Shown here: positions 4,462 to 23,588 of the stretch, piece after piece
How the letters are laid out: every line of letters starts with the position of its first letter
Numbering within the stretch: position 1 is the stretch's first letter
Notes under the pieces: model-generated
Databases searched by the model: none
Seen by the model: the letters and a program-made list of their open reading frames with translations, nothing else
Told to the model about the DNA's origin: nothing
Origin: Bdellovibrionales bacterium
Lineage (GTDB): Bacteria; Bdellovibrionota; Bdellovibrionia; Bdellovibrionales; UBA1609
DNA: 64,000 nucleotides
Direction: 5' to 3'
NCBI GenBank assembly: GCA_965199935.1
Contig: CBDATD010000001.1
Location: 800,531-864,530 of the forward strand
Program-made: the position numbers and the translations under genes

Positions 4462-5283
4462 TTACATATCAGATTTTTGCATATCTTCTTTCATATCTGG
4501 TTTTTTCATATCTTTCATATCAGCCAGATGGCGGTCAATAATCTTTTTAAACTCTGAAAAAGGTTGAGCTCCAGAGAGAGAAACTCCTCCAACCAAAAAC
4601 CCTGGAGTTCCATTGATGCCAAATTTTTTAGCCTCTGCTTGATCCGCATCGACGATAGATTTGACAGAATCTAAGTGTTGTTGCACCTTTTTCAGATCAA
4701 GTCCTATCTCTTTAACTATTGCTGTAAGAAGTTTTTCCTTTTTCTGCCCCAGCTCGCTTTGTTTTTCAAAAACTTTGTCGTGGAAAGACTTGGCTTTAGA
4801 AGGATCAACCTTTGCCACCGCCTCATAGTACTGAGCGGCGATTCCTGCTTCAGGGTGAAAGGGCAAAGGCAGATGTTTGTAAAGAATTCGAACCTTTCCT
4901 TCATATTCTTTAAGGACTTGCTCTACGGCTCCCTCACCGGCCCGCTTGCAAAAGCCGCATTGAAAATCAGAATACTCCACGATAGTAATAGGAGCTTTCA
5001 TATCTCCGAAATAGACGCGGTCCTCACCCAGTTTCGGTTTTTTTGGGTTTGTAAATTCGTCTTCACGGGCCTTGGCTTTCTGCTCCTCAGCGGATTTCAT
5101 CTGCTCCTGTCTGTACTTTACGCTGGCTTTGTTTAAGGCATCCAGGATAACTTTCGGGTTTTCCTCAATGACCTCAGCCAGAATATCCGGATTGTCTTTC
5201 AATACTTTTTTAATATATTCCTTTGAACAAGAAACATTGAATAACAGCACAAGCAATAAGGGTGAAAACCTGATAAACTTCAT
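4462..5283 (-). CDS. DsbA/Com1-like thioredoxin-fold lipoprotein
   Basis: EYSDFQCGFC, GINGTPGF; lipobox-like LFNVSC after MKFIRF start at 5283 with upstream GGAG. Confidence 0.88.
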   Translation of the reverse strand: MKFIRFSPLLLVLLFNVSCSKEYIKKVLKDNPDILAEVIEENPKVILDALNKASVKYRQEQMKSAEEQKAKAREDEFTNPKKPKLGEDRVYFGDMKAPITIVEYSDFQCGFCKRAGEGAVEQVLKEYEGKVRILYKHLPLPFHPEAGIAAQYYEAVAKVDPSKAKSFHDKVFEKQSELGQKKEKLLTAIVKEIGLDLKKVQQHLDSVKSIVDADQAEAKKFGINGTPGFLVGGVSLSGAQPFSEFKKIIDRHLADMKDMKKPDMKEDMQKSDM

Positions 5284-5432
5284 CAAAACTCTCCTTTTTA
5301 AGTTATTAAACAAAGCAGTATTATCACACCAATGGAATAGATTTTCAAACAAAAAACAACTCTGTGTATGAAATTCATGGAGATTGTTTTTCTTTGGGAT
5401 ATAATGGAATTTGCAAAGTGGAAGAGGAAAAT

Positions 5433-6071
5433 ATGGCACTATGTAGCATAATAAAACACTTGCCCGTTTGGGGGCTGACTTTGCTGTTTTTGCATTGTAC
5501 GCACACATCAGATCGAGAATATTTGCCTGCTCAACTGCCTTATTTTTTCAATGAACTGCACGTTAAGGGCTATGAAGGGATGATGAAATTGATTGAGCCT
5601 TGGTTGAAAAAAGCCAGTGATATTAGGAAAGAAGAATTTTCTATAGGCAGTTCTTTGGAGATGGATCCAACTATTCGGCAGGCCTATATTATTGCGTTGT
5701 CTCGATCACACCATGACTCCGTAGTGGTGAAGCTGATTAAAAATATTCGCTCCAGAACTTCTGTGAAAACTGATTTTTTTTCTGTCATAACAACTATTGC
5801 CAAGCAGTCCTCTGCGGGCTTTAAAAATAAAGACCGCTCCCCCTTGGAAAGAGCAACATATCTCTATGTTTTAGAAAATATTATCACGGCAGTCAGCGCC
5901 TATACGACAAGCGATAAGAGGGCGGTTGACATCTTAAGAATCATTGCCTCAGCAGATATTGAAATTCCTGATCTTGTTCATAATGAGAGGTATATCCACG
6001 CTTTGGAGCCTCAAAGCCTGTCCCCTTCTCAGACGGCGGAAAATATTTTAGAAAAGACTGTTTCCGAATGA
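5433..6071 (+). CDS. Hypothetical (lipo)protein
   Basis: ORF with GAGG upstream of ATG 5433; hydrophobic stretch ending LLFLHC. Confidence 0.6.
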   Translation: MALCSIIKHLPVWGLTLLFLHCTHTSDREYLPAQLPYFFNELHVKGYEGMMKLIEPWLKKASDIRKEEFSIGSSLEMDPTIRQAYIIALSRSHHDSVVVKLIKNIRSRTSVKTDFFSVITTIAKQSSAGFKNKDRSPLERATYLYVLENIITAVSAYTTSDKRAVDILRIIASADIEIPDLVHNERYIHALEPQSLSPSQTAENILEKTVSE

Positions 6072-13792: not shown

Positions 13793-16700
13793 TTAAACAG
13801 CAGTATTGTAAATGTTGGATTTGGTCATTTCATCAGCAGTGTGTTCAGCTTGCTTTAAGACATTATCTACAGCCAGCTGTTCCATATCCGGCGGGTAGTT
13901 GTATTTCTTTAAGATGCTTTTGACCATAATTCTCATTTTAGCTTTGACATTTTCTCTAATTTGCCAATCTATGGACGCGTTTTTCCTTACTGTATTTGTT
14001 AAAGCGATAGCTAGTTCTCTCAGTTGCTCTTTTTCCATAAGTTCACGGGCACTCTTATTGTCAGCCACAGCCGTGTAGAAAGCGTATTCTTCATCAGATA
14101 ATTTCATTTTTTGAGGTTTTTCAGTTTCTGACTGAATATTTTTTGCAATTTTAATTAACTCTTCAATGACTTCTGCGGCTGTAATAATTTTGTTATGGTA
14201 CTTGTTTATAGCCCCTTTCAGTCCTTCCATGAGGGTTTTTCCCTGCATGATGTTCTTCTTTGTTTTTCCTTTAATTTCATCATTTAAAAGTTTGGTGAGC
14301 GTTTCTATGGCAACGTTTTTATGTTTCATATTCTTGATTTCCAATAAGAACTCGTCAGACAGAATGGAAATATCCGGTGTTTTAATTCCTGCTGCTGAAA
14401 ATACATCTATCACTTTATGGGATACCAAAGCTTTGTCGATAACTTGGCGAATGACCGTTTCGATTTCCAGATCAGTTTTCCCTTCTCCTGTGCTGGTGAA
14501 TTTTACAAGTCTTGCTTTGACAGCTTGAAAAAAAGCAACTTCATCTTTAATACTTATAGCCTGCTCATGAGGTACAGAGAGAGCAAAAGCTTTTGATAAA
14601 GCAGTCACCTCATCAATAAATCTTTTTCTTCCTTTTTCTAAACTTAAAATATGTTCTTCGGCTTGAAGAATGAGAGAAAGTTTTTTGGCAGTATCTGCTG
14701 TAAAATATTGTTTGTGGTCAAAACTATGAAACATTTGAGAAATTACTTCTAGTTTTTCGAGCATTAAAGAAACAGCCTTTTCCTGAGGCAATGCTGGTTC
14801 TCCTTTTCCTCCATTTTTGGAGTAGAAGGAAAGAGCTCTTTTTAAATTCGAGGCAATTCCTAAATAATCAACCACCAACCCTCCGGGTTTATCTTTATAA
14901 ACACGATTGACACGGGCAATAGCCTGCATGAGATTGTGGCCTTGCATAGGCTTGTCAATATAAAGTGTGTGCAGGCAGGGAACATCAAATCCAGTCAGCC
15001 ACATATCTACAACGATAACTAACTTAAGAGAATTTGCTGGATTTTTAATTCTATTAGCCAGGAACCGACGTTGCTCTTTATTGGTGTAGTGTTTGGAAAA
15101 CTCCGGCCCATCGCTGGAAGAAGATGTCATAACTACTTTTATTTTTCCTTTATTTAAGTCCTCGTCATGCCACTGAGGGCGAAGTTCAGTGATTTCACTA
15201 TAGAGATTCACAGCTATTCTGCGGGACATACAGACAATCATGCCTTTTCCCGCAAACACTTCTTCTCTTTTTTCAAAGTGATCTATAATATCTTTAGTGA
15301 TATGTTTGATTCTTTTTTTACTTCCTATAATAGACTCAAGTTGTGTAAATTTTGATTTGCTTTTTTGAGTGTCAGAAAGATCATTTTTAAGTTCTTGATC
15401 TAAATCTTTAATAAGTTTTTCCCCTTCTTTGCTGAGTTCCACTTTAGCAAGACGGCTTTCATAAGAGATGGGTACCGTGGCCTTATCTTCTACAGCTTGA
15501 GCAATATCGTAAATATCTACATAGCTTCCAAAGACTGCTGGTGTATTTCTATCTGTTCCTTCTACAGGAGTACCGGTAAATCCAAGATAGGCGGCATGAG
15601 GCAACGCGTCTCTCATGTATTTAGCAAACCCATAAACTGTCCTTTGTCCGATAATTTCCCCTTTACTGTCTTTGTCTTCGACTATTTTTGCTTTGAAGCC
15701 ATATTGGCTTCGATGGGCTTCATCGGCAATCACAACAATATTTTTACGATTGGATAATTGTTCGTAGACGTTGCCTTCTTCAGGGTGAAATTTTTGTATA
15801 GTGGTGAAGACAATTCCTCCGGATTTAACTTTCAATAGCTCCTTCAAATGCTCCCGGTTTTTTGCCTGCACAGGCTCTTGTCTTAAAAGAGTTTTTGAGG
15901 CAGTAAAAGTATCAAACAATTGGTTATCTAGGTCGTTTCTATCTGTGATGATCACAATTGTCGGGTTGTTTAGTTTTTGCACAATTTTTCCAACAGTGAA
16001 GACCATGGTGAGAGATTTTCCTGAACCTTGAGTGTGCCAGATAACACCGCCTTTGCGGCTGCCGGATTCAGAGCTGGCTTGAATAACAGACTGCAATGCT
16101 TTGTTAGCGGCGTAGTATTGATGATAGGCGGATAATTTTTTGATGATTTCAGTATTTGTTATACCTTTGTGTTCTTTTTTTATTTTTTCGAAAACGATAA
16201 AGTGCCGGATAAGATCTAGCAATGTAGCTTTATTTAGCATCCCTTTGATTAAAGTTTCTAGTTGGTTAATATTTTTCTTAGCTTCGTTTGTCCCGTCTAT
16301 GGTTTTCCAAGCCATATATCGGTCTATACCAGCAGATGAAGAGCCGACTTTAGCCGTCAAGCCATCTGAAATAATTGAAATACTGTTGTAAGTAAAAAGT
16401 GAAGGGATGTATTTTTTATAAGTTTGCAATTGCTTGTAGGCGGATTGAAGAGTGGCCTTTTCATCTCTTGGATTTTTAAGTTCGATAACTACTAGAGGAA
16501 GGCCATTGATGAATAAAATAATATCAGGGCGGTAGTTTCTTCGATTTTCGACGATAGTAAATTGATTGACAACGTGATATTCATTATTTTCTGGGTTTTG
16601 AAAATCAATCAAGCGGATGTAGTCGCCCCGTCTCTCGGAATTTTGTTGCACTGTAACACTTACTCCTTCTATCATCATTCGATGAAAATTTAAGTTTCCG

Positions 16701-16972
16701 AGTTGTTCTGAATGGATACGTTGTACTTCAAGAAATGCATCTTCCTTAACGGAGACGGGAGCGTTTGGATTGAGGCGTGTTATAGCAGATTGAAGTATAT
16801 TGTCGAGCAGTACATCTTCATAGCTGTTGCGGAGAGGTTGAGAGGAGTCTGGGGAGATATTTGAGCCGTGAAGATGCTTAAACCCTTGTTTTTCAAGCAG
16901 GTTAATAGCCAGCTGTTCAATATCATCTTCTGTAATTTTTTTCATGATTTTCTTATCGTCAGTATTCCCCAA
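13793..16972 (-). CDS. hsdR: Type I restriction endonuclease subunit R
   Basis: RPDIILFINGLPLVVIELK, HTQGSGKS, DEAHRSQY, FTGTP, LMQAIARVNR; true start may be the ATG near 16945. Confidence 0.96.
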   Translation of the reverse strand: MGNTDDKKIMKKITEDDIEQLAINLLEKQGFKHLHGSNISPDSSQPLRNSYEDVLLDNILQSAITRLNPNAPVSVKEDAFLEVQRIHSEQLGNLNFHRMMIEGVSVTVQQNSERRGDYIRLIDFQNPENNEYHVVNQFTIVENRRNYRPDIILFINGLPLVVIELKNPRDEKATLQSAYKQLQTYKKYIPSLFTYNSISIISDGLTAKVGSSSAGIDRYMAWKTIDGTNEAKKNINQLETLIKGMLNKATLLDLIRHFIVFEKIKKEHKGITNTEIIKKLSAYHQYYAANKALQSVIQASSESGSRKGGVIWHTQGSGKSLTMVFTVGKIVQKLNNPTIVIITDRNDLDNQLFDTFTASKTLLRQEPVQAKNREHLKELLKVKSGGIVFTTIQKFHPEEGNVYEQLSNRKNIVVIADEAHRSQYGFKAKIVEDKDSKGEIIGQRTVYGFAKYMRDALPHAAYLGFTGTPVEGTDRNTPAVFGSYVDIYDIAQAVEDKATVPISYESRLAKVELSKEGEKLIKDLDQELKNDLSDTQKSKSKFTQLESIIGSKKRIKHITKDIIDHFEKREEVFAGKGMIVCMSRRIAVNLYSEITELRPQWHDEDLNKGKIKVVMTSSSSDGPEFSKHYTNKEQRRFLANRIKNPANSLKLVIVVDMWLTGFDVPCLHTLYIDKPMQGHNLMQAIARVNRVYKDKPGGLVVDYLGIASNLKRALSFYSKNGGKGEPALPQEKAVSLMLEKLEVISQMFHSFDHKQYFTADTAKKLSLILQAEEHILSLEKGRKRFIDEVTALSKAFALSVPHEQAISIKDEVAFFQAVKARLVKFTSTGEGKTDLEIETVIRQVIDKALVSHKVIDVFSAAGIKTPDISILSDEFLLEIKNMKHKNVAIETLTKLLNDEIKGKTKKNIMQGKTLMEGLKGAINKYHNKIITAAEVIEELIKIAKNIQSETEKPQKMKLSDEEYAFYTAVADNKSARELMEKEQLRELAIALTNTVRKNASIDWQIRENVKAKMRIMVKSILKKYNYPPDMEQLAVDNVLKQAEHTADEMTKSNIYNTAV

Positions 16973-17330: not shown

Positions 17331-18353
17331 TTAAATTAGATTATTTACCAGGCTGTTAATGGCTTCTCTGTATCTTCTCAATGGCATAGGATTTACTTGT
17401 GGTTCTATTTCGTGAACTTTGTGAGGGCCAGCCTTTAATTTACTAATAGGTAATCCTTGATGTGAACAAACAATAGCTGGTGAATGAGCATCAGGAATGT
17501 CGTAATATTCAAAATGGCTATAAAAATGCTCATTTTTAGATTTTTTAAAAGCATTCACTCTATTTTTAATTTCTTCAAACATAGCTCCAAAAGCTTTACT
17601 GGCTTTTTGATCATACTGAGTGGAACGATTGAGCAACACAGAATGTATCACAGGTAAGCTCATGCCGAATTTATCAGTTTTATTCGAAAAGCTAGTAGAT
17701 TCTAACTCCCCCGGTAAATTATGCCCATATACAAGAGAGGCTAAATTATCGATGGCTCTAGCAGAGGATCCGTCACTGGAGCAAGGTACAATAATTTGAT
17801 TGGATGTTAATAATGACAATTCTGTATAGGCAGAAAAGCTTGGATTACAATCTATAAAAGTCGTTGTATTTCCATATTTCTTTTCGCCTGCTATAACTAA
17901 ATCTAAAAGCCAAGAGTGTACATTTTTCCATGCAACTTCAGGGAGAGTTTGGCTACTAATTTGATTCATAACCTGAGCTTGAATTTCCAGCTGGGGATCT
18001 CCCGCTATGAGATATAAATTTTTAGGTATTTCTTTATTTGTTTTATTAACTTCCAGAAAGAAATCCACTTCTTGGCCTGTTTTTTCATGGGGACTTTTAA
18101 TCCTTAAATTTATGTATGCTCCAACTGTTTTCTTTTGTTTTATAAATGTTTCCAATGATTTCGATCCTTTGTTGTTGCCTCCAAGAAAAATCTCAGAAAG
18201 ATTAGCTTGAGGACACATATCTACAACGATAACTGTTTTATCTTGATGCTTTAGGGCATACTCTGCTGATAACATAAAGGAAAGGAAAGTTTTCCCAACT
18301 CCTCCCTTGTTATTCCAAATAGCATATCGCATCGTTTCGCCCATGTGGGGCAT
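17331..18353 (-). CDS. Orphan ParA/Soj-family ATPase
   Basis: Deviant Walker A NNKGGVGKT, VDMCPQANLS, FIDCNPS. Confidence 0.88.
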   Translation of the reverse strand: MPHMGETMRYAIWNNKGGVGKTFLSFMLSAEYALKHQDKTVIVVDMCPQANLSEIFLGGNNKGSKSLETFIKQKKTVGAYINLRIKSPHEKTGQEVDFFLEVNKTNKEIPKNLYLIAGDPQLEIQAQVMNQISSQTLPEVAWKNVHSWLLDLVIAGEKKYGNTTTFIDCNPSFSAYTELSLLTSNQIIVPCSSDGSSARAIDNLASLVYGHNLPGELESTSFSNKTDKFGMSLPVIHSVLLNRSTQYDQKASKAFGAMFEEIKNRVNAFKKSKNEHFYSHFEYYDIPDAHSPAIVCSHQGLPISKLKAGPHKVHEIEPQVNPMPLRRYREAINSLVNNLI

Positions 18354-18426
18354 CGTACACGATTAGGGTATAAAATGCAAGCTATTTTTTGTTCGTTTTA
18401 TACAACTTGATCAAAGGTTTTACTCT

Positions 18427-19461
18427 TCATATTTTTGGCAGTTTATGTGTATATTTTTGGTCTTTTTCTTGATGTAATTTGTTGTCAGTATTTCCTTTTT
18501 TAGTGGGCAATGGTTCTGGTGTTGCTCCATTTTTATTCATAGTATCTTTGGTTACTTTTTGTTCATTATTGAACAAATTGATCCAGTTTTCTTTATATTC
18601 AGCAAGACAAAAAGATACCAGTATGAACAGTACAGATAATACCATAAACCCCAATTGGGTGTAGAAAGTCCACTTTGCAGCTTTGGTTTGTTCTTGTGCT
18701 GCTTGAACTTTACTTTGATTCACAATGTTTCCCGAATATTGGATTTTTCTACTCTTCAGATGGTCAAACCATGAATTTATAGATTTTATTCCACTTTCAC
18801 ACAGTGAGGCAATTTCATCTATTGTTGTGTCAAATTGCAGTAGTCCAATTCTTTCTGCTGGATGATTTTTGGGGAATCGCTTTATTTCCTCATTAGTTTT
18901 GGAGTTTATCATCACCAAAGTGGTCATTGGCATAATATGACTAAATATCTTCTTTTTAAATTGTATGATATGAGACATAAAAGATTGTACTCTGATCATG
19001 TATTCAGATATTTTTTCCATACTGCTCTCTTGATTGTGTATTGACCCTAAATCTTTCAAGAGTTTTCTATACTGTTCAAGGTGGTTAGAGATGCCACCCA
19101 GTAGTGATTTTTTCATTTTATCAACTTCGTTTTTAATAGCATTGTCCATTTTCTTCATATCAGCAGGATTTCTACTGGGGAATTTTGTTTGATTATACAC
19201 TCTCAGCATCTCTATAAGATCTTTTTTAAAATCTTGAGCATCATCAGTGTTTTCATCTTGTAATTTTAGATGTCTTTCTTTCATCTCCTCAAACAACAGG
19301 GATATAGTTTCTATTTGATTTACAATTTGAGGTATAAGAATCTCCTCTTCAATAAAACTAGGTTTCATTTGATGATTTTTCACTTTCTCAATGCAATTTG
19401 TATTATTTCTATCATTTTTTCCTGAAAACATATAATTCCTATAGAGAACTACAAAATACAA
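18427..19461 (-). CDS. Hypothetical helical protein with one C-proximal transmembrane segment
   Basis: 344-aa ORF, helical and charge-rich, TM FYTQLGFMVLSVLFILVSFCLA; start uncertain. Confidence 0.6.
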   Translation of the reverse strand: MYFVVLYRNYMFSGKNDRNNTNCIEKVKNHQMKPSFIEEEILIPQIVNQIETISLLFEEMKERHLKLQDENTDDAQDFKKDLIEMLRVYNQTKFPSRNPADMKKMDNAIKNEVDKMKKSLLGGISNHLEQYRKLLKDLGSIHNQESSMEKISEYMIRVQSFMSHIIQFKKKIFSHIMPMTTLVMINSKTNEEIKRFPKNHPAERIGLLQFDTTIDEIASLCESGIKSINSWFDHLKSRKIQYSGNIVNQSKVQAAQEQTKAAKWTFYTQLGFMVLSVLFILVSFCLAEYKENWINLFNNEQKVTKDTMNKNGATPEPLPTKKGNTDNKLHQEKDQKYTHKLPKI

Positions 19462-19619
19462 CCTTTACAGAAGTAAGGTGGGTTGGATTGGTGTTTATGT
19501 CAAGGTACTGAGATAAAAAATCTGTAATAATGCTGTTTTGACCTTTTGTAATAACTTGATTTGAGGATGGCAGATGGGGGTATATGAAAACCATAGACTG
19601 ATAGGGAGGAAACAAAGGT

Positions 19620-20165
19620 TGTTTTGATTGTTTTATAGAAATACCCAGTAATATACCTTCGAGAGTGCTGCCACATAGAAAAATTGTTGCTAATGGTGAT
19701 TTTGCTCTTAAACATTTTTTGATTTCTTCTACTCTTTGCTCAAGGGTTCTTGTGATTACACTGTCTAAGTTTAGCTTATGAATGGAGATATCTTTGAATT
19801 CTTGCTTTAAAAAACTCGTTTTCTTTTTCTTGTAAGTCTGTTGATTGATAATTTTGACCTAATAATCTACAAATAATTTTTTGTGCTTTTAAGTTTAGTT
19901 CTAGATCCATTTCTCCTATGGAACTAGCATATTTAAGTGGAGCTTGAAGTACCTTACCAACAATATCATCTGGTTCTATTTCCCAGAAAGTCCTGAGTCT
20001 TTTCATCTTAGACTGTCCGTTAAAATGATATTTCTGTGCTTCAATATCTATTCTATGCTCTCTAAAAAATTCTGCAAATGTACGATTAGTAAAATCAAGG
20101 ACGTATCCTCCCCTATCAAATAATCTCTCAAAAATTGCTTTTTCATGCATCTCTAATGTAGACAT
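19620..20165 (-). pseudogene. AbiJ-N-terminal-like domain protein, frameshifted and 3'-truncated
   Basis: GGYVLDFTNRTFAEFF...SKMKRLRTFW; shifting frame at the homopolymer 19809-19814 continues EFLKQEFKDIS...SPLATIFLCGSTLEGILLG and then loses resemblance. Confidence 0.6.
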
Positions 20166-21640
20166 TTTATTCCTACTTGGCCGGTGATTAGTTTTGGGAG
20201 GAGAATGTTGCGAAGTTTCTCGAGTTTTGAAATAGATATAAGGTTTAAAATAATTTTTTCAAATTGTGGGTTCATTAACTTATTCATCTTTGACAATTCA
20301 TCTTTTGGTGGTGCTAGAGTTATTGAGTGAGATAAATCCTTTCTTTTTATATGTCCCATAGTGGTTGCTTTGCTTTCTGCGATTTTAACAAATTCTTTCA
20401 TATAATATTTTGTCCAAAAATAATAAAACCACTTTGGATAATGCTTTGATGTGATTTTGAACAAATGTTGATTTAAAATGCATTCCTGTCCATCCCATAC
20501 TTTTATTAATAAACTTCCAGACCATGAAAAAATTATATCTCCCAATTTTATAATATATTTGTCATCCACTTCAGAAGTTGACCAATCTGAATTGTCTGTA
20601 ACACCGTCTTTCAGTTCTTTAATTTTTAGAACAGGCAATTTATCAGCGTTATTTTTTGGAGGATATTTTTGACAGGCTAAACCATTTAAATAGTCTGCTA
20701 TTTCGTCTAAAGGTTTTTCTTGCCAGTTGGGTTTGGCGTCTTCTATGAACCACTGGCGGAAAAGGGTTTGTGCTATATTTTCCAAAGTTTTGTTTTGCTC
20801 ATGCAATAGCTTGATTTTGTCATCAAGGCTGGACAGCACTTCAGCAATAGCCTTTTGTTCAGGAAGAGGAGGGAGAGAAAACTCATAATCTTTAATTCTT
20901 TCAGGAGAAGTATGCCTTACTGAAGTTCCACTTGCAGAACTAACTACAAACCAATGATAGTTGTACGTACGCATTAGCCAATAGATAAAGTCTTTGTTTA
21001 TTTTTTTTGATCTGAATTGCACTAATCCTATTCTTTGATTATGTAGATATATTTCATTCTTTTCTTTTTTTGGAATTTTTGTTGCATAACCAAGCGTGTC
21101 ACTTTCTTTACTAAGATCTGTCATTGTAATAATTAAATTATTTTCTGTCAGAATATAACTATTTGGAACATCTCCCTTGAAATACTTTAATTTTGATGAT
21201 TTAAAACCACCTCCTATACGAAAGTTTCCAGGAGTCACAAGAATGTTGTTTGTGGGTTTACTAGTGATACTTTTACCTTTAAAAGCATAACCGTGTTTTA
21301 CATCTATCAAATTACCAAGTTTTACTGTACGCCAGCCTTTGCGGTAGATAATGATGCCATGCTGATCAATATGTTTTTTTAAATTTTTGCTATCAATATG
21401 TGGATACGATAAGACATCTACAAAATAAGGTAAATTTGTTTCTTCTTCAAAATAACCTTTTAAACTACCGGCGAGTGTGTTGCTTACCTTTTTCCCTTTA
21501 AGAGCGATGTCAATGTCCGACGCTGTTTTAAAAGTATTGATGGCTCTTGAACCAAAAAGCACCGCCTGTTCTATTTCAGGATGAACAACAAGGGTCCTTT
21601 CTATAATTTTTAACTGACCGTCTAATAATCCGTATTTCAT
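20153..21640 (-). CDS. hsdS: Type I RM specificity subunit with N-terminal minimal nucleotidyltransferase (MNT) domain
   Basis: N-terminal LFGSRA-x8-DID; two TRDs with LPPLPEQKAIAEVLSSLDDKI and LRNILLPKLITG conserved helices. Confidence 0.9.
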   Translation of the reverse strand: MKYGLLDGQLKIIERTLVVHPEIEQAVLFGSRAINTFKTASDIDIALKGKKVSNTLAGSLKGYFEEETNLPYFVDVLSYPHIDSKNLKKHIDQHGIIIYRKGWRTVKLGNLIDVKHGYAFKGKSITSKPTNNILVTPGNFRIGGGFKSSKLKYFKGDVPNSYILTENNLIITMTDLSKESDTLGYATKIPKKEKNEIYLHNQRIGLVQFRSKKINKDFIYWLMRTYNYHWFVVSSASGTSVRHTSPERIKDYEFSLPPLPEQKAIAEVLSSLDDKIKLLHEQNKTLENIAQTLFRQWFIEDAKPNWQEKPLDEIADYLNGLACQKYPPKNNADKLPVLKIKELKDGVTDNSDWSTSEVDDKYIIKLGDIIFSWSGSLLIKVWDGQECILNQHLFKITSKHYPKWFYYFWTKYYMKEFVKIAESKATTMGHIKRKDLSHSITLAPPKDELSKMNKLMNPQFEKIILNLISISKLEKLRNILLPKLITGQVGIKCLH

Positions 21641-22044
21641 AATTCCTTTTTAAGATGAAAATAAAGATCTCTTACAAGATTATAAAAATCTTTTTGAACA
21701 AAAGAAATGACTTCCTTCAAAATATCTTCTTTATAGATGTGAGAGGTTTTATTTCTTTTATCTGTTGAATCCATCCACTTTTCAGGATCAGAAATTAGTT
21801 CCGCCTCAAAAGCTTTTCTAAATATGTTTTTGGGAAGACTGCCGCAGTCCACCCCTTGATTTTCCAGATAATCTTTTAATGTCTTCCAAGATAACCCAAA
21901 TATAATTTCAAAAGCCTGAATCAAAGCCATCTGATACCCTTCACTCTTAGGATGTTGTTCCAGATCATTTATTCGCCTTTGAAGAACTTGAAAAGATTTT
22001 TCAAAGTTTTCAAATCTTTGCTTCCATCTTTTTTCATTGTTCAT
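21637..22044 (-). CDS. HEPN toxin / nucleotidyltransferase substrate-binding protein (HI0074-like)
   Basis: RWKQRFENF, IQAFE, WKTLKDYL, RNKTSHIY (RX4HXY). Confidence 0.88.
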   Translation of the reverse strand: MNNEKRWKQRFENFEKSFQVLQRRINDLEQHPKSEGYQMALIQAFEIIFGLSWKTLKDYLENQGVDCGSLPKNIFRKAFEAELISDPEKWMDSTDKRNKTSHIYKEDILKEVISFVQKDFYNLVRDLYFHLKKEL

Positions 22045-22055
22045 ATTTTTCTCCT

Positions 22056-23588
22056 TTATTTGTTGTAATCAATTTTAGATAGATTTTTTAAAATGTGCTT
22101 ATTCAATATTGCCTCCTCTTTCATTTGTTTTTCCAGAGTACTTTTTAATTCATTGAATTTTTCTGAAAAGTTAAAATCATCTTTTTCCTCTGGAAGTCCT
22201 ACATATCGTCCTGGACTTAAGACGTAGTCCAATTTTTTAATTTCACTCAAAGGAATTGAACTGCAAAAGCCAGGGATGTTTTTATAAGATTTTTCTCCTT
22301 TTTTCCACTTATGGTAAACACTTGCAATTTTCTTAGTATCTTGATCCGAAAATTCCCGGTTTTTTCTGTTGATCAAATGCCCTAAATTTTTGGCATCAAT
22401 AAACAATATCTCTTCTTTTCTTTCCGTTTTACCTCTTCTTAAAAACCAAAGAGATGCAGGGATTTGTGTATTTAAAAACAGTTTTGAAGGCAGATTCACA
22501 ATGCAATCTACTAATCCCTCATCTATAAGGTTTTTTCGAATGACGTCTTCATTAGAAGATTTGGAAGTCAGCGAGCCTTTAGCCATAACAAAACCAGTTG
22601 CACCCCCTTGAGGAGTCAAGTGATAAACAAAGTGTTGAATCCATGCAAAGTTTGCATTGCTTGCAGGCGGAATGCCGTACTTCCATCGGCCGTCTTGTTT
22701 TAATGAACTCCCGCTCCAATTGCTGTCATTAAACGGAGGATTGGCAATAACAAAGTCTGCTTTCAGGTCAGGGTGTTCGTTTCTTAAGAATGAGCCTTCA
22801 TTGTTCCACTTGATCTGTGAGCTATCAATGCCTCGAATAGCTAGGTTCATCTTTGCAAGCCTCCAAGTGGTTTGATTGCTTTCTTGTCCATAAATGGAAA
22901 TATTTTTGACTAAACCCTGATGCTTTTTGATAAATTCTTCAGATTGAACAAACATACCTCCAGTGCCGCAACAAGGATCAAAGACACGCCCCTTATAAGG
23001 CTCTAACATTTCCACAAGCAGTTTAACCACAGAGAGGGGGGTGTAAAACTGTCCTCCTTTTTTACCCTCAGCTATTCCAAATTGGCCTAGAAAATACTCA
23101 AACACATGGCCTAGAATGTCTCCATTTCGATTCTTTGCAGACTCCATGTCAATATTATTAAATTCATCAATGAGTTTACCTAAATTTAAGGGGTCGAGAT
23201 TTCCTCTAGCATAAACTTTTGGAAGCACATTTTTAAGAGAGGAATTTTCTTTTTCAATAGCATCCATTGCTGAATCAATATCTTTGCCAATTTCCGGTAA
23301 TTTAGCACGGGAACATAAATAGGGCCAACGAGCGGAAGGAGGCACATAGAAAATATTTTCTGCTATGTATTGATCACGATCTTCTAGATCAGTTTTTTTT
23401 CTTCTTTTCAATCTATTATAAAGAGCCTCAAAAGAGTCAGAAATGTATTTTAAAAAAATCAATCCTAGGACGATGTGCTTATATTCTGCCGCATCAATAT
23501 TTTTTCTCAAACTGTCCGCGGCCTCCCATAGTTTTTTCTCTATAGGAGCTTTATTCTTTATGATCGTTTTTGATCTATTTTTTAGCAT
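22056..23588 (-). CDS. hsdM: Type I RM methyltransferase subunit M (N6-adenine)
   Basis: GQFYTP, FDPCCGTGGM, YGQE, ANPPF. Confidence 0.96.
   Translation of the reverse strand: MLKNRSKTIIKNKAPIEKKLWEAADSLRKNIDAAEYKHIVLGLIFLKYISDSFEALYNRLKRRKKTDLEDRDQYIAENIFYVPPSARWPYLCSRAKLPEIGKDIDSAMDAIEKENSSLKNVLPKVYARGNLDPLNLGKLIDEFNNIDMESAKNRNGDILGHVFEYFLGQFGIAEGKKGGQFYTPLSVVKLLVEMLEPYKGRVFDPCCGTGGMFVQSEEFIKKHQGLVKNISIYGQESNQTTWRLAKMNLAIRGIDSSQIKWNNEGSFLRNEHPDLKADFVIANPPFNDSNWSGSSLKQDGRWKYGIPPASNANFAWIQHFVYHLTPQGGATGFVMAKGSLTSKSSNEDVIRKNLIDEGLVDCIVNLPSKLFLNTQIPASLWFLRRGKTERKEEILFIDAKNLGHLINRKNREFSDQDTKKIASVYHKWKKGEKSYKNIPGFCSSIPLSEIKKLDYVLSPGRYVGLPEEKDDFNFSEKFNELKSTLEKQMKEEAILNKHILKNLSKIDYNK

Follow-up and report, generated by a model that had tools for sequence, protein, structure and literature searches.

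A predicted HEPN/MNT toxin-antitoxin module with its antitoxin fused to the type I restriction-modification specificity subunit

We analyzed a 64,000-nucleotide (nt) stretch of a Bdellovibrionales bacterium genome (assembly GCA_965199935.1, contig CBDATD010000001.1, positions 800,531 to 864,530 of the forward strand), hereafter called the window, whose own numbering is used throughout. It holds a type I restriction-modification (RM) operon in which a gene for a predicted HEPN RNase toxin stands between hsdM and hsdS, and in which the putative antitoxin, a nucleotidyltransferase of the MNT type, is read as the N-terminal part of the specificity subunit HsdS. Type I RM systems and HEPN/MNT pairs are each familiar, and the presence of toxin genes inside RM loci is a long-standing observation. 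In the window, the predicted antitoxin is not merely encoded in the RM locus but is a domain of the specificity subunit itself. The RM genes and the parts of the module lie as follows (lengths in amino acids, aa; TRD, target recognition domain; AF2, AlphaFold2).

23588..22056, minus strand: hsdM, type I methyltransferase subunit, 510 aa (PF02384 5.9e-105, PF12161 6.3e-24; PADLOC MTase_I 1.1e-176)
22044..21637, minus strand: HEPN, 135 aa, a putative RNase toxin from the HI0074 / Legionella-type branch (PF08780 6.8e-34)
21733..21756, minus strand: Rx4HxY motif RNKTSHIY (R97, H102, Y104), HEPN residues 97-104 (sequence)
21637..21640, minus strand: ATGA, the HEPN stop TGA overlapping the fusion ATG (tcat on the plus strand)
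21640..20153, minus strand: MNT::hsdS fusion, 495 aa (PF18765 on residues 13-101, 3.8e-12; PF01420 from residue 101 in two stretches, 4.4e-26)
21338..21640, minus strand: MNT domain, fusion residues 1-101, predicted AMP-transferase antitoxin (PF18765, PDB and Foldseek matches)
21509..21553, minus strand: GSX10DXD motif GSRAINTFKTASDID, fusion residues 30-44 (G30, S31, D42, D44) (sequence)
21332..21337, minus strand: junction G102-W103, the last MNT strand running directly into TRD1 (sequence, AF2 model)
20153..21337, minus strand: HsdS proper, residues 102-495, with TRD1, central helix, TRD2 and C-terminal helix (PF01420; PADLOC Specificity_I)
16972..13793, minus strand: hsdR, type I restriction subunit, 1059 aa (PF11867 5.1e-125, PF18766 7.9e-79, PF04313 5.1e-49; PADLOC REase_I E = 0)

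The type I RM set is complete, with hsdM directly 5' of the module and hsdR 3.2 kb downstream on the same strand. An 11-nt, Shine-Dalgarno-like spacer separates hsdM from HEPN (coding strand AAAGGAGAAAA), and, to judge from the sequence, HEPN and MNT::hsdS are translationally coupled through the ATGA overlap, giving the adjacent, co-oriented and coupled gene pair by which type VII HEPN/MNT systems are recognized. A first-pass annotation of this DNA had read the order hsdM - HEPN - MNT::hsdS with ATGA at 21637-21640, RNKTSHIY in the HEPN and GS-x10-DID in the MNT; open reading frames (ORFs) and sequence agree with this order, and both motifs were located.

The HEPN protein passed the NCBIfam model TIGR01987 (HI0074 family) at 79.2 bits against a cut-off of 55.8, matched PF08780 alone and not PF01934 (HepT) in Pfam, and is the sole PF08780 match in its 1.44-Mb genome. 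It matched the solved 'HEPN toxin' of Legionella pneumophila (PDB 8XDJ/8XEM) at 5.6e-19 and PDB 1JOG at 1.4e-07, and its R97, H102 and Y104 align to R98, H103 and Y105 of the L. pneumophila protein. H102 and Y104 are invariant, and R97 is present in at least 90%, in an alignment of 26 HEPNs (A2), from which five of the 30 proteins taken from the related loci described below were left out (L002, frameshifted; L063, with an internal deletion; L077, truncated; L015 and L054, near-duplicates). Rx4HxY is intact in 28 of the 31 HEPNs of the window and these 30 loci, and the window protein has both this motif and the acceptor Tyr of type VII HEPN/MNT toxins. A PrrC-type anticodon nuclease was considered and rejected, since the window HEPN is a 135-aa single domain without an ATP-binding cassette (ABC) NTPase.

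The MNT part matched the 'MNT' chains of the same L. pneumophila structures (8XEH_E/8XEO; 4.4e-10) over residues 3-101, ending two residues short of the end of the 108-aa chain. Foldseek returned 8xeo_B for this part (TMt 0.88, root-mean-square deviation 2.3 over 101 columns) and 1no5_B (TMt 0.79), with weak similarity to 7bxo_E and 7ae9_G. None of the 45 fusions in alignment A1 departs from G30, S31, R32, D42, D44 and D75, and G30, S31, D42 and D44 align to G36, S37, D48 and D50 of the L. pneumophila MNT; the Pol-beta-type MNT with GSX10DXD that characterizes type VII systems is present in the window fusion. Taken on these sequence matches, the HEPN/MNT toxin-antitoxin identity of the pair is well supported, and we assign the module to the HI0073/HI0074 / Legionella-type branch and not to the Shewanella MntA/HepT branch.

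The remainder of the fusion has the makeup of a whole specificity subunit. PADLOC Specificity_I covered residues 101-493 (2.1e-77), and an AF2 model built on the 45-row alignment (mean predicted local distance difference test score, pLDDT, 86.5; predicted template modeling score, pTM, 0.81) has long helices at 259-300 and 446-486, so that two TRDs parted by two long conserved helices, the hallmark of HsdS, are present in the fusion. Foldseek matched this part to 1yf2_A (8e-17) and 2y7c_A (6e-15), and also to 3okg and 7vru_C. Median pairwise identity within the 45 fusions is 0.57 for the MNT, 0.74 for the central helix and 0.18 for each TRD, and a conserved MNT ahead of hypervariable TRDs is the mosaic expected of specificity subunits that exchange recognition domains. 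From its sequence features and its model, the HsdS part looks functional.

At the junction the sequence ...HGIIIYRKGWRTVKLG reads through with neither stop nor Met, in line with the earlier reading that the MNT runs into TRD1 uninterrupted, and the same is seen in a contig assembled from reads (below). The ...IYRKGW... junction is conserved, with W103 in at least 90% of the 45 fusions, and the model sets the last MNT strand (96-100) and the first TRD strand (104-107) in a block with a pLDDT of 87-93. Reading the sequence around the junction, we found no Met at the boundary and no obvious start with a ribosome-binding site for a free HsdS; free HsdS may arise from non-canonical initiation. A predicted complex of HEPN (from A2) with the whole fusion (from A1) scored 0.26 and 0.25 against a mark of 0.32, control complexes not having been folded, and was counted neither for nor against binding.

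The first-pass annotation had suggested confirming the junction in reads and surveying MNT-HsdS fusions with an upstream HEPN. A 4057-nt contig assembled independently from public reads (run X1) covers 20900-22014 with 0 differing letters and 0 gaps and spans both the junction and the ATGA overlap, with no stop or frameshift; run X1 is possibly the sample of origin, which makes this an independent assembly and not an independent sample. Other contigs of the metagenomic runs X1 and X2 match the first ~55 nt of the HEPN gene (window 21985-22044) at ~90% and then diverge, and are therefore taken as related HEPN genes of other organisms in those samples.

As for the survey, a search with the MNT plus junction, limited to proteins of 272-867 aa at E <= 0.001 (211 candidates), returned 50 proteins, all of which carry both PF18765 and PF01420; 45 of them make up alignment A1, the short P0011, P0020, P0025, P0026 and P0047 being left out. 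The profile of this 45-row alignment, run against 1.84 billion cluster representatives, matched 171,919 proteins (E <= 0.001), the bulk of which are ordinary HsdS; among the best 150 of these, 112 were matched by the MNT model and 38 were not. With both searches pooled, at least 153 of 191 proteins are fused, GSx(9-11)DxD is kept in 152 of the 153, and MNT identity among them goes down to 35-39%. Their public source names are plain 'restriction endonuclease subunit S'. PADLOC specificity-subunit models begin at about residue 96-103, after the MNT, and annotation pipelines therefore miss the extra domain.

To place the fusion in its genomic surroundings, we took the best 80 of 559 confirmed stretches (594 candidates) from one-genome-per-species contigs, found with two search patterns, one in the MNT and one in the HsdS central helix, and annotated with phmmer and hidden Markov models built from the first matches; with patterns chosen in this way, both fused and plain hsdS enter the sample, which is biased accordingly and is no guide to prevalence. 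MNT::hsdS is present in 31 of the 80 loci. Directly upstream and on the same strand, a PF08780-type HEPN stands in 30 of these 31 and in none of the 49 plain-hsdS loci; L052, a plain-hsdS locus, has a HEPN elsewhere, not beside hsdS. The survey therefore bears out the pairing of fused proteins with an upstream HEPN that the first-pass annotation had looked for, and 22 of the 30 HEPN-bearing fused loci have the 4-nt ATGA overlap. hsdM lies upstream in 27 of the 31 fused loci and hsdR inside the fetched stretch in 20.

Of the 31 fused loci, two are unclassified records and one belongs to the Patescibacteria group; the others come from eight named phyla, namely Pseudomonadota (12), Spirochaetota (5), Thermodesulfobacteriota (4), Bacteroidota (3), and Bdellovibrionota, Myxococcota, Cloacimonadota and Chloroflexota (one each). 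Belliella kenyensis DSM 46651 (L074) is a cultured and non-pathogenic carrier. Closer to home, clear fused matches (E <= 1e-25, open frame of at least 344 aa) were found among 60 relatives in G010 alone (two of 61 genomes when G000 is counted), and none by the same measure in three same-genus genomes, a patchy distribution typical of mobile defense genes. The G010 protein (L083:1501-2592) is shorter, at 363 aa: beyond its MNT it matches the window HsdS part over the latter's initial ~200 residues (TRD1 into the central helix) and over the last ~60 (C-terminal helix), with no match for the TRD2 region. G010 has a second fused copy on another contig, with an open frame of 344 aa.

Several loci have more than one module or pieces of one. 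In L053 (4781-7506) and L067 (4781-7503) the order is hsdM - HEPN (143 aa) - free MNT (118 aa) - HEPN - MNT::hsdS, from which it follows that fused and free MNT copies can coexist. L004 has two tandem HEPN ORFs (5048-5539 and 5549-5968), and L081 has fragments of an additional HEPN and MNT upstream.

A divergent fused form, which we call clade 2, is found in nine loci (L004, L005, L012, L014, L015, L041, L057, L077 and L081); it has its own HEPN type, in which Rx4HxY is retained (e.g., RGDSAHDY), and Pfam gave Polbeta and Methylase_S, and PF08780, on L004. A search for standalone relatives of the MNT returned 127 proteins of 30-271 aa, the best 71% identical. A quick MNT tree of 280 rows and 100 columns left 108 of 271 inner branches open. 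A careful tree was built from 80 rows (35 fused, 45 standalone; drawn at random with five forced inclusions) and 100 columns under LG+G4 without a mixture, and some of its 'standalone' rows, such as P0192, are possibly frameshifted fusions. In this tree clade 2 is monophyletic (100/100), fused and standalone rows are interleaved, and there are 10 changes between the two states, at least five of them forced by well-supported branches; the approximately unbiased (AU) test rejected the tree with all fused rows together (log-likelihood difference 157, p-AU 1.8e-6). Fused and split forms have thus interconverted repeatedly, by fusion, fission or both. In P0192, sister to the window MNT, unrelated residues come after a terminal ...IIIYRKAW, which gives it the look of a broken, frameshifted former fusion; P0193 ends cleanly.

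Gene order bears on how such a fusion can arise. According to the available text of PMC3710099, MNT genes lie 5' of HEPN in almost all cases, and the Shewanella antitoxin gene likewise lies upstream of the toxin gene in what could be consulted of PMC4621449. HEPN comes first, in contrast, in the window, in the 30 fused loci with a HEPN, in the unfused pairs that L053 and L067 also carry, in four standalone pairs of relatives (L084-L087), and in an annotated plasmid pair (L088:2076-2800), in which HEPN is followed by MNT with a 4-nt overlap; an overlap of this length is usual in the branch. By gene number alone, lpg2920 (HEPN) and lpg2921 (MNT) of L. pneumophila agree with this order. The solved 108-aa L. 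pneumophila MNT lacks helix alpha4 (PMC11586414, as available). With HEPN first, a short MNT and hsdS next in line, the loss of a single stop codon joins MNT to hsdS. On plasmids, standalone pairs of this family were seen in 90 records, 81 of them from Piscirickettsia; none of the 90 matching plasmid records, nor the single phage record, covers at least 80% of a 130-aa junction query, and the matches listed end at residue 101.

An MNT-HsdS fusion is not described in the literature that we found by full-text search, nor in PMC3710099, PMC3632139, PMC2701414, PMC12839542 or bioRxiv 2024.01.29.577857, though supplements lay outside this search and could list it (the additional files of PMC3710099, the tables of the embedded-defense preprint). 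Related arrangements are on record: the accessible part of PMC3710099 mentions both the clustering of HEPN genes with RM operons and fusions of HEPN to MNT or methylases, that of PMC12255303 has toxin-antitoxin modules embedded in type I RM systems, such as DarTG2, and PMC7641849 has an ASCH domain fused to HsdS.

We propose that the window carries a type VII-like HEPN/MNT module of the short-MNT branch, placed between hsdM and hsdS, whose antitoxin gene lost its stop codon, so that the nucleotidyltransferase would form the N-terminal domain in a complete and working HsdS. A HEPN dimer or tetramer would act as an RNase, and the MNT domain would use ATP to oligo-AMPylate HEPN Tyr104 beside R97/H102 and so silence it; both steps are expected by homology. 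MntA-type enzymes oligo-AMPylate the Tyr beside Rx4H (available text of PMC13000451 and PMC11586414), in line with the Tyr AMPylation that the first-pass annotation had named, and in the L. pneumophila system Y105 of HEPN is the AMPylated residue, the G36A/S37T, D48E and D50E changes in MNT abolish AMPylation, one MNT monomer binds to a HEPN tetramer, and HEPN digests rRNA (PMC11586414, as far as available). Since the residues defined there map to G30, S31, D42, D44 and Y104, we infer that the MNT domain of the window AMPylates Y104.

From this architecture three kinds of coupling would follow. Genetically, a 5' deletion or truncation of hsdS would remove the antitoxin; translationally, hsdM, HEPN and MNT::hsdS would be chained by the 11-nt spacer and the ATGA; and in amount and place, one MNT would be made per HsdS and hence per RM complex, with the toxin modified on or beside it. 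The most likely role is then addiction, in which loss of the RM operon would be made costly, and the second likely role is a generic abortive back-up upon collapse of host gene expression or of ATP during infection, without specific sensing of anti-restriction factors. A type VII-like module coupled to HsdS that serves RM-operon addiction and generic abortive back-up is the reading we rank first and hold to be probable, if by no means assured. Such a module may explain the stabilization of a type I RM system, a kind of system that is normally easy to lose. The arrangement recurs in at least 153 proteins and eight named phyla and has arisen or been lost several times, and it offers a compact, testable three-gene model for the wiring of immunity to dormancy or suicide, with D42/D44, R97/H102 and Y104 as sites for point mutants.

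Several observations weigh against this proposal. Three of the 31 HEPNs are degenerate (by a frameshift in L002, an internal deletion in L063 and a missing Arg in L081), and in L073 (Paludibacter) an IS200/Y1-transposase-like ORF (PF01797 4.5e-06) stands in HEPN's place (L073:5345-6003). Because of L073 and these degenerate HEPNs, MNT::HsdS can evidently persist without a live toxin. The L. pneumophila HEPN is still toxic as R98A and H103A, its active site being Q44/E47 with Mg2+ (PMC11586414, as available); Q43/E46 are present in the window, yet only 27 of 31 family members keep E46, K often stands in place of Q43, and the toxin's catalytic mechanism is therefore less certain than its motif suggests. 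The MNT part reached 32.1 bits on the NCBIfam MntA equivalog NF047752, below its cut-off of 60. Lastly, classical addiction needs a labile antitoxin, and fusion to a stable partner may take that lability away. The transposase-like ORF of L073 has G/A/P-rich repeats, and its stop overlaps the MNT::hsdS start as ATGA.

The first-pass annotation had put forward a guard for the RM system, with addiction to hsdS as its alternative; we rank addiction above the guard. In a guard, the activity or stability of the MNT would depend on the state of the M2S1/R2M2S1 complex, and DNA mimics such as Ocr or ArdA, or other anti-restriction factors, would obstruct or destabilize MNT::HsdS and leave newly made HEPN unmodified, so that infection is aborted. 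There are precedents in PrrC, a HEPN anticodon nuclease tied to the type I RM system EcoprrI (available part of PMC3632139) and released when T4 Stp binds EcoPrrI, and in Ronin (ronA-hsdS-hsdM), in which HsdMS suppresses RonA, and ArdA, Ocr and Aop1 trigger it (both in the accessible text of bioRxiv 2023.04.06.535777); the link of PrrC to type I RM and a phage trigger, which the first-pass annotation had also named, agrees with these two sources. The short, conserved and confidently modeled junction would allow conformational coupling, and the fused state is old and widespread. Against this, neutralization would be covalent, so that a disturbance of HsdS does not by itself free an AMPylated toxin; hsdR is kept in most fused loci (20 of 31), unlike in the decoy Ronin; and the repeated interconversion of fused and split forms (at least five forced changes; p-AU 1.8e-6) makes the tether look dispensable and fits a looser coupling at least as well as a guard. 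We consider a guard rather unlikely, and we think it just as improbable that, through the covalent tether, the RM complex itself acts as the antitoxin, with HEPN kept silent only as long as HsdS is intact, part of an assembled complex and not occupied by DNA mimics. If that were true, the cell would go over from restriction to RNase-mediated abortive infection upon loss of the complex or in response to anti-restriction proteins, the fusion would be a physical implementation of the immunity-suicide coupling hypothesis, and it would be the first antitoxin enzyme to serve as a domain of an immune effector.

Alternatively, the fusion may be a near-neutral accident, with the toxin-antitoxin pair working apart from the RM system. 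The HEPN-MNT-hsdS order, the stop/start overlap and an MNT whose last element is a strand, with no helix alpha4, would all ease such an accident, as would a tolerant HsdS N-terminus: an engineered EcoKI HsdM-HsdS fusion restricts and modifies (PMC3510504, as available), and the HsdS N-terminus therefore tolerates fusion. Fusion and fission are recurrent, P0192 resembles a frameshifted former fusion beside the clean end of P0193, and the 90 plasmid records and the single phage record match the MNT part without an hsdS continuation. An accident sits poorly, however, with at least 153 fused proteins whose MNT identity falls to 35-39%, with a fusion kept while TRDs swap, and with two deeply separated fused clades (clade 2 support 100/100); long persistence and repeated origin suggest that the fused state is at least not selected against, and we regard a merely incidental fusion as quite doubtful.

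It is less probable still that there is no toxin-antitoxin pair at all and that HEPN and MNT form a two-subunit nucleotidyltransferase, mounted on HsdS, whose target would be HsdM or HsdR (as a control on restriction), a phage protein or DNA ends. The HEPN family bears the Pfam name 'nucleotidyltransferase substrate binding protein', an earlier view of this kind for HI0073/HI0074 is recounted in the available text of PMC11586414, and a tether to the DNA-recognition subunit would put the enzyme on DNA; the acceptor Tyr104 is, however, invariant in 26 of 26 HEPNs beside Rx4H, and the members whose study was accessible to us, including the HepT/MntA branch, act as toxin and AMPylating antitoxin. 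An assembly or annotation artefact at the MNT/hsdS boundary, in favor of which nothing was found, was rejected on the identical X1 contig and on the in-frame junction in 45 of 45 aligned proteins and 31 loci of other organisms, and has a vanishingly small chance of being right.

Further genes are embedded between hsdS and hsdR.

19613..20165, minus strand: decayed AbiJ-like gene (tblastn with an intact 278-aa homologue from L066)
20165..19776, minus strand: 129-aa ORF, the N-terminal piece of the decayed gene, overlapping the hsdS end by 13 nt
19461..18427, minus strand: 344-aa protein with no clear family (Pfam sub-threshold matches only)
18353..17331, minus strand: ParA-like ATPase, 340 aa (PF13614 3.1e-16, PF01656 9.1e-09)

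In tblastn the decayed gene matched residues 1-160 of the 278-aa homologue in one frame and 118-187 in another; in the window, homology to this homologue runs past the stop of the 129-aa ORF and changes frame. The intact homologue (L066:7400-8236, from a Bdellovibrionales metagenome-assembled genome) lies directly downstream of an MNT::hsdS, and its C-terminus, ...LRDFRNYIHP, is a possible second HEPN-like Rx(n)H motif. An atlas comparison points weakly to AbiJ_NTD3/NTD5 (0.90/0.89) for the decayed gene and is a lead only; Pfam gave no match on the 129-aa ORF or its 278-aa homologue, and PADLOC none for the HEPN, the 129-aa ORF or the ParA-like protein. The 344-aa protein and the ParA-like ATPase together occupy 17331-19461 on the minus strand, between hsdS and hsdR, and ParA genes inside type I RM systems are listed as likely second-line defenses in the available part of bioRxiv 10.64898/2026.10.19.760177.

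Among known systems, the L. pneumophila HEPN-MNT type VII pair (lpg2920/lpg2921; PDB 8XDJ, 8XEM, 8XEO, 8XEH; PMC11586414, as available) is the best solved match of both parts, and it shares with the window a short MNT without helix alpha4, GSX10DXD, RX4HXY with an acceptor Tyr, and overlapping genes; its MNT is a free 108-aa protein, whereas that of the window runs on into an HsdS of 394 residues, the pair being located within a type I RM operon. HI0073/HI0074 of Haemophilus influenzae (PDB 1NO5, 1JOG) have the same HEPN family and MNT fold and are separate small proteins, unlike the fused MNT of the window. For HepT/MntA of Shewanella oneidensis (SO_3166/SO_3165) and HEPN/MNT of A. flos-aquae, the chemistry is the Tyr AMPylation that we expect in the window (accessible parts of PMC13000451 and PMC7641770), although the S. 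oneidensis antitoxin gene is upstream (PMC4621449, as available), where the window has HEPN upstream, and MNTs of the HepT/MntA branch have a long alpha4 helix (available text of PMC11586414), where that of the window is short. Fusions within the toxin-antitoxin pair also exist: the fused systems in the accessible part of PMC13000451 run MNT-to-HEPN, whereas P0308 (236 aa), seen in our searches, has HEPN (PF08780) at its N-terminus and MNT at 146-230, a HEPN-to-MNT fusion.

Systems that tie a toxin to a type I RM locus differ from the window in the nature of the toxin and of its restraint. PrrC-EcoprrI is like the window in having a HEPN-superfamily RNase encoded within, and functionally linked to, a type I RM locus (on the available descriptions); PrrC has an N-terminal ABC NTPase and no enzymatic antitoxin, whereas the window has a 135-aa single-domain HEPN whose presumed neutralizer is covalently part of HsdS. 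Ronin, as described in the text available, is similar in that HsdM/HsdS proteins keep a toxin silent as a back-up against anti-restriction proteins, but RonA is a 61-aa membrane protein held by sequestration in a system without hsdR, whereas the window has a predicted RNase, presumably restrained by AMPylation, and hsdR is present. DarTG2 in the RptR island (PMC12255303) and ParA in type I RM systems (bioRxiv 10.64898/2026.10.19.760177) resemble the window, in the portions of these sources available, as second-line modules within an RM operon; they are separate genes between hsdS and hsdR, whereas the window has its module between hsdM and hsdS, joined to the latter. Finally, the engineered EcoKI HsdM-HsdS (PMC3510504, as available) and the natural ASCH-HsdS (PMC7641849, as available) illustrate that HsdS accepts an extra domain, the additions there being a methyltransferase and a putative modified-base reader, respectively, whereas the addition in the window is a predicted antitoxin enzyme.

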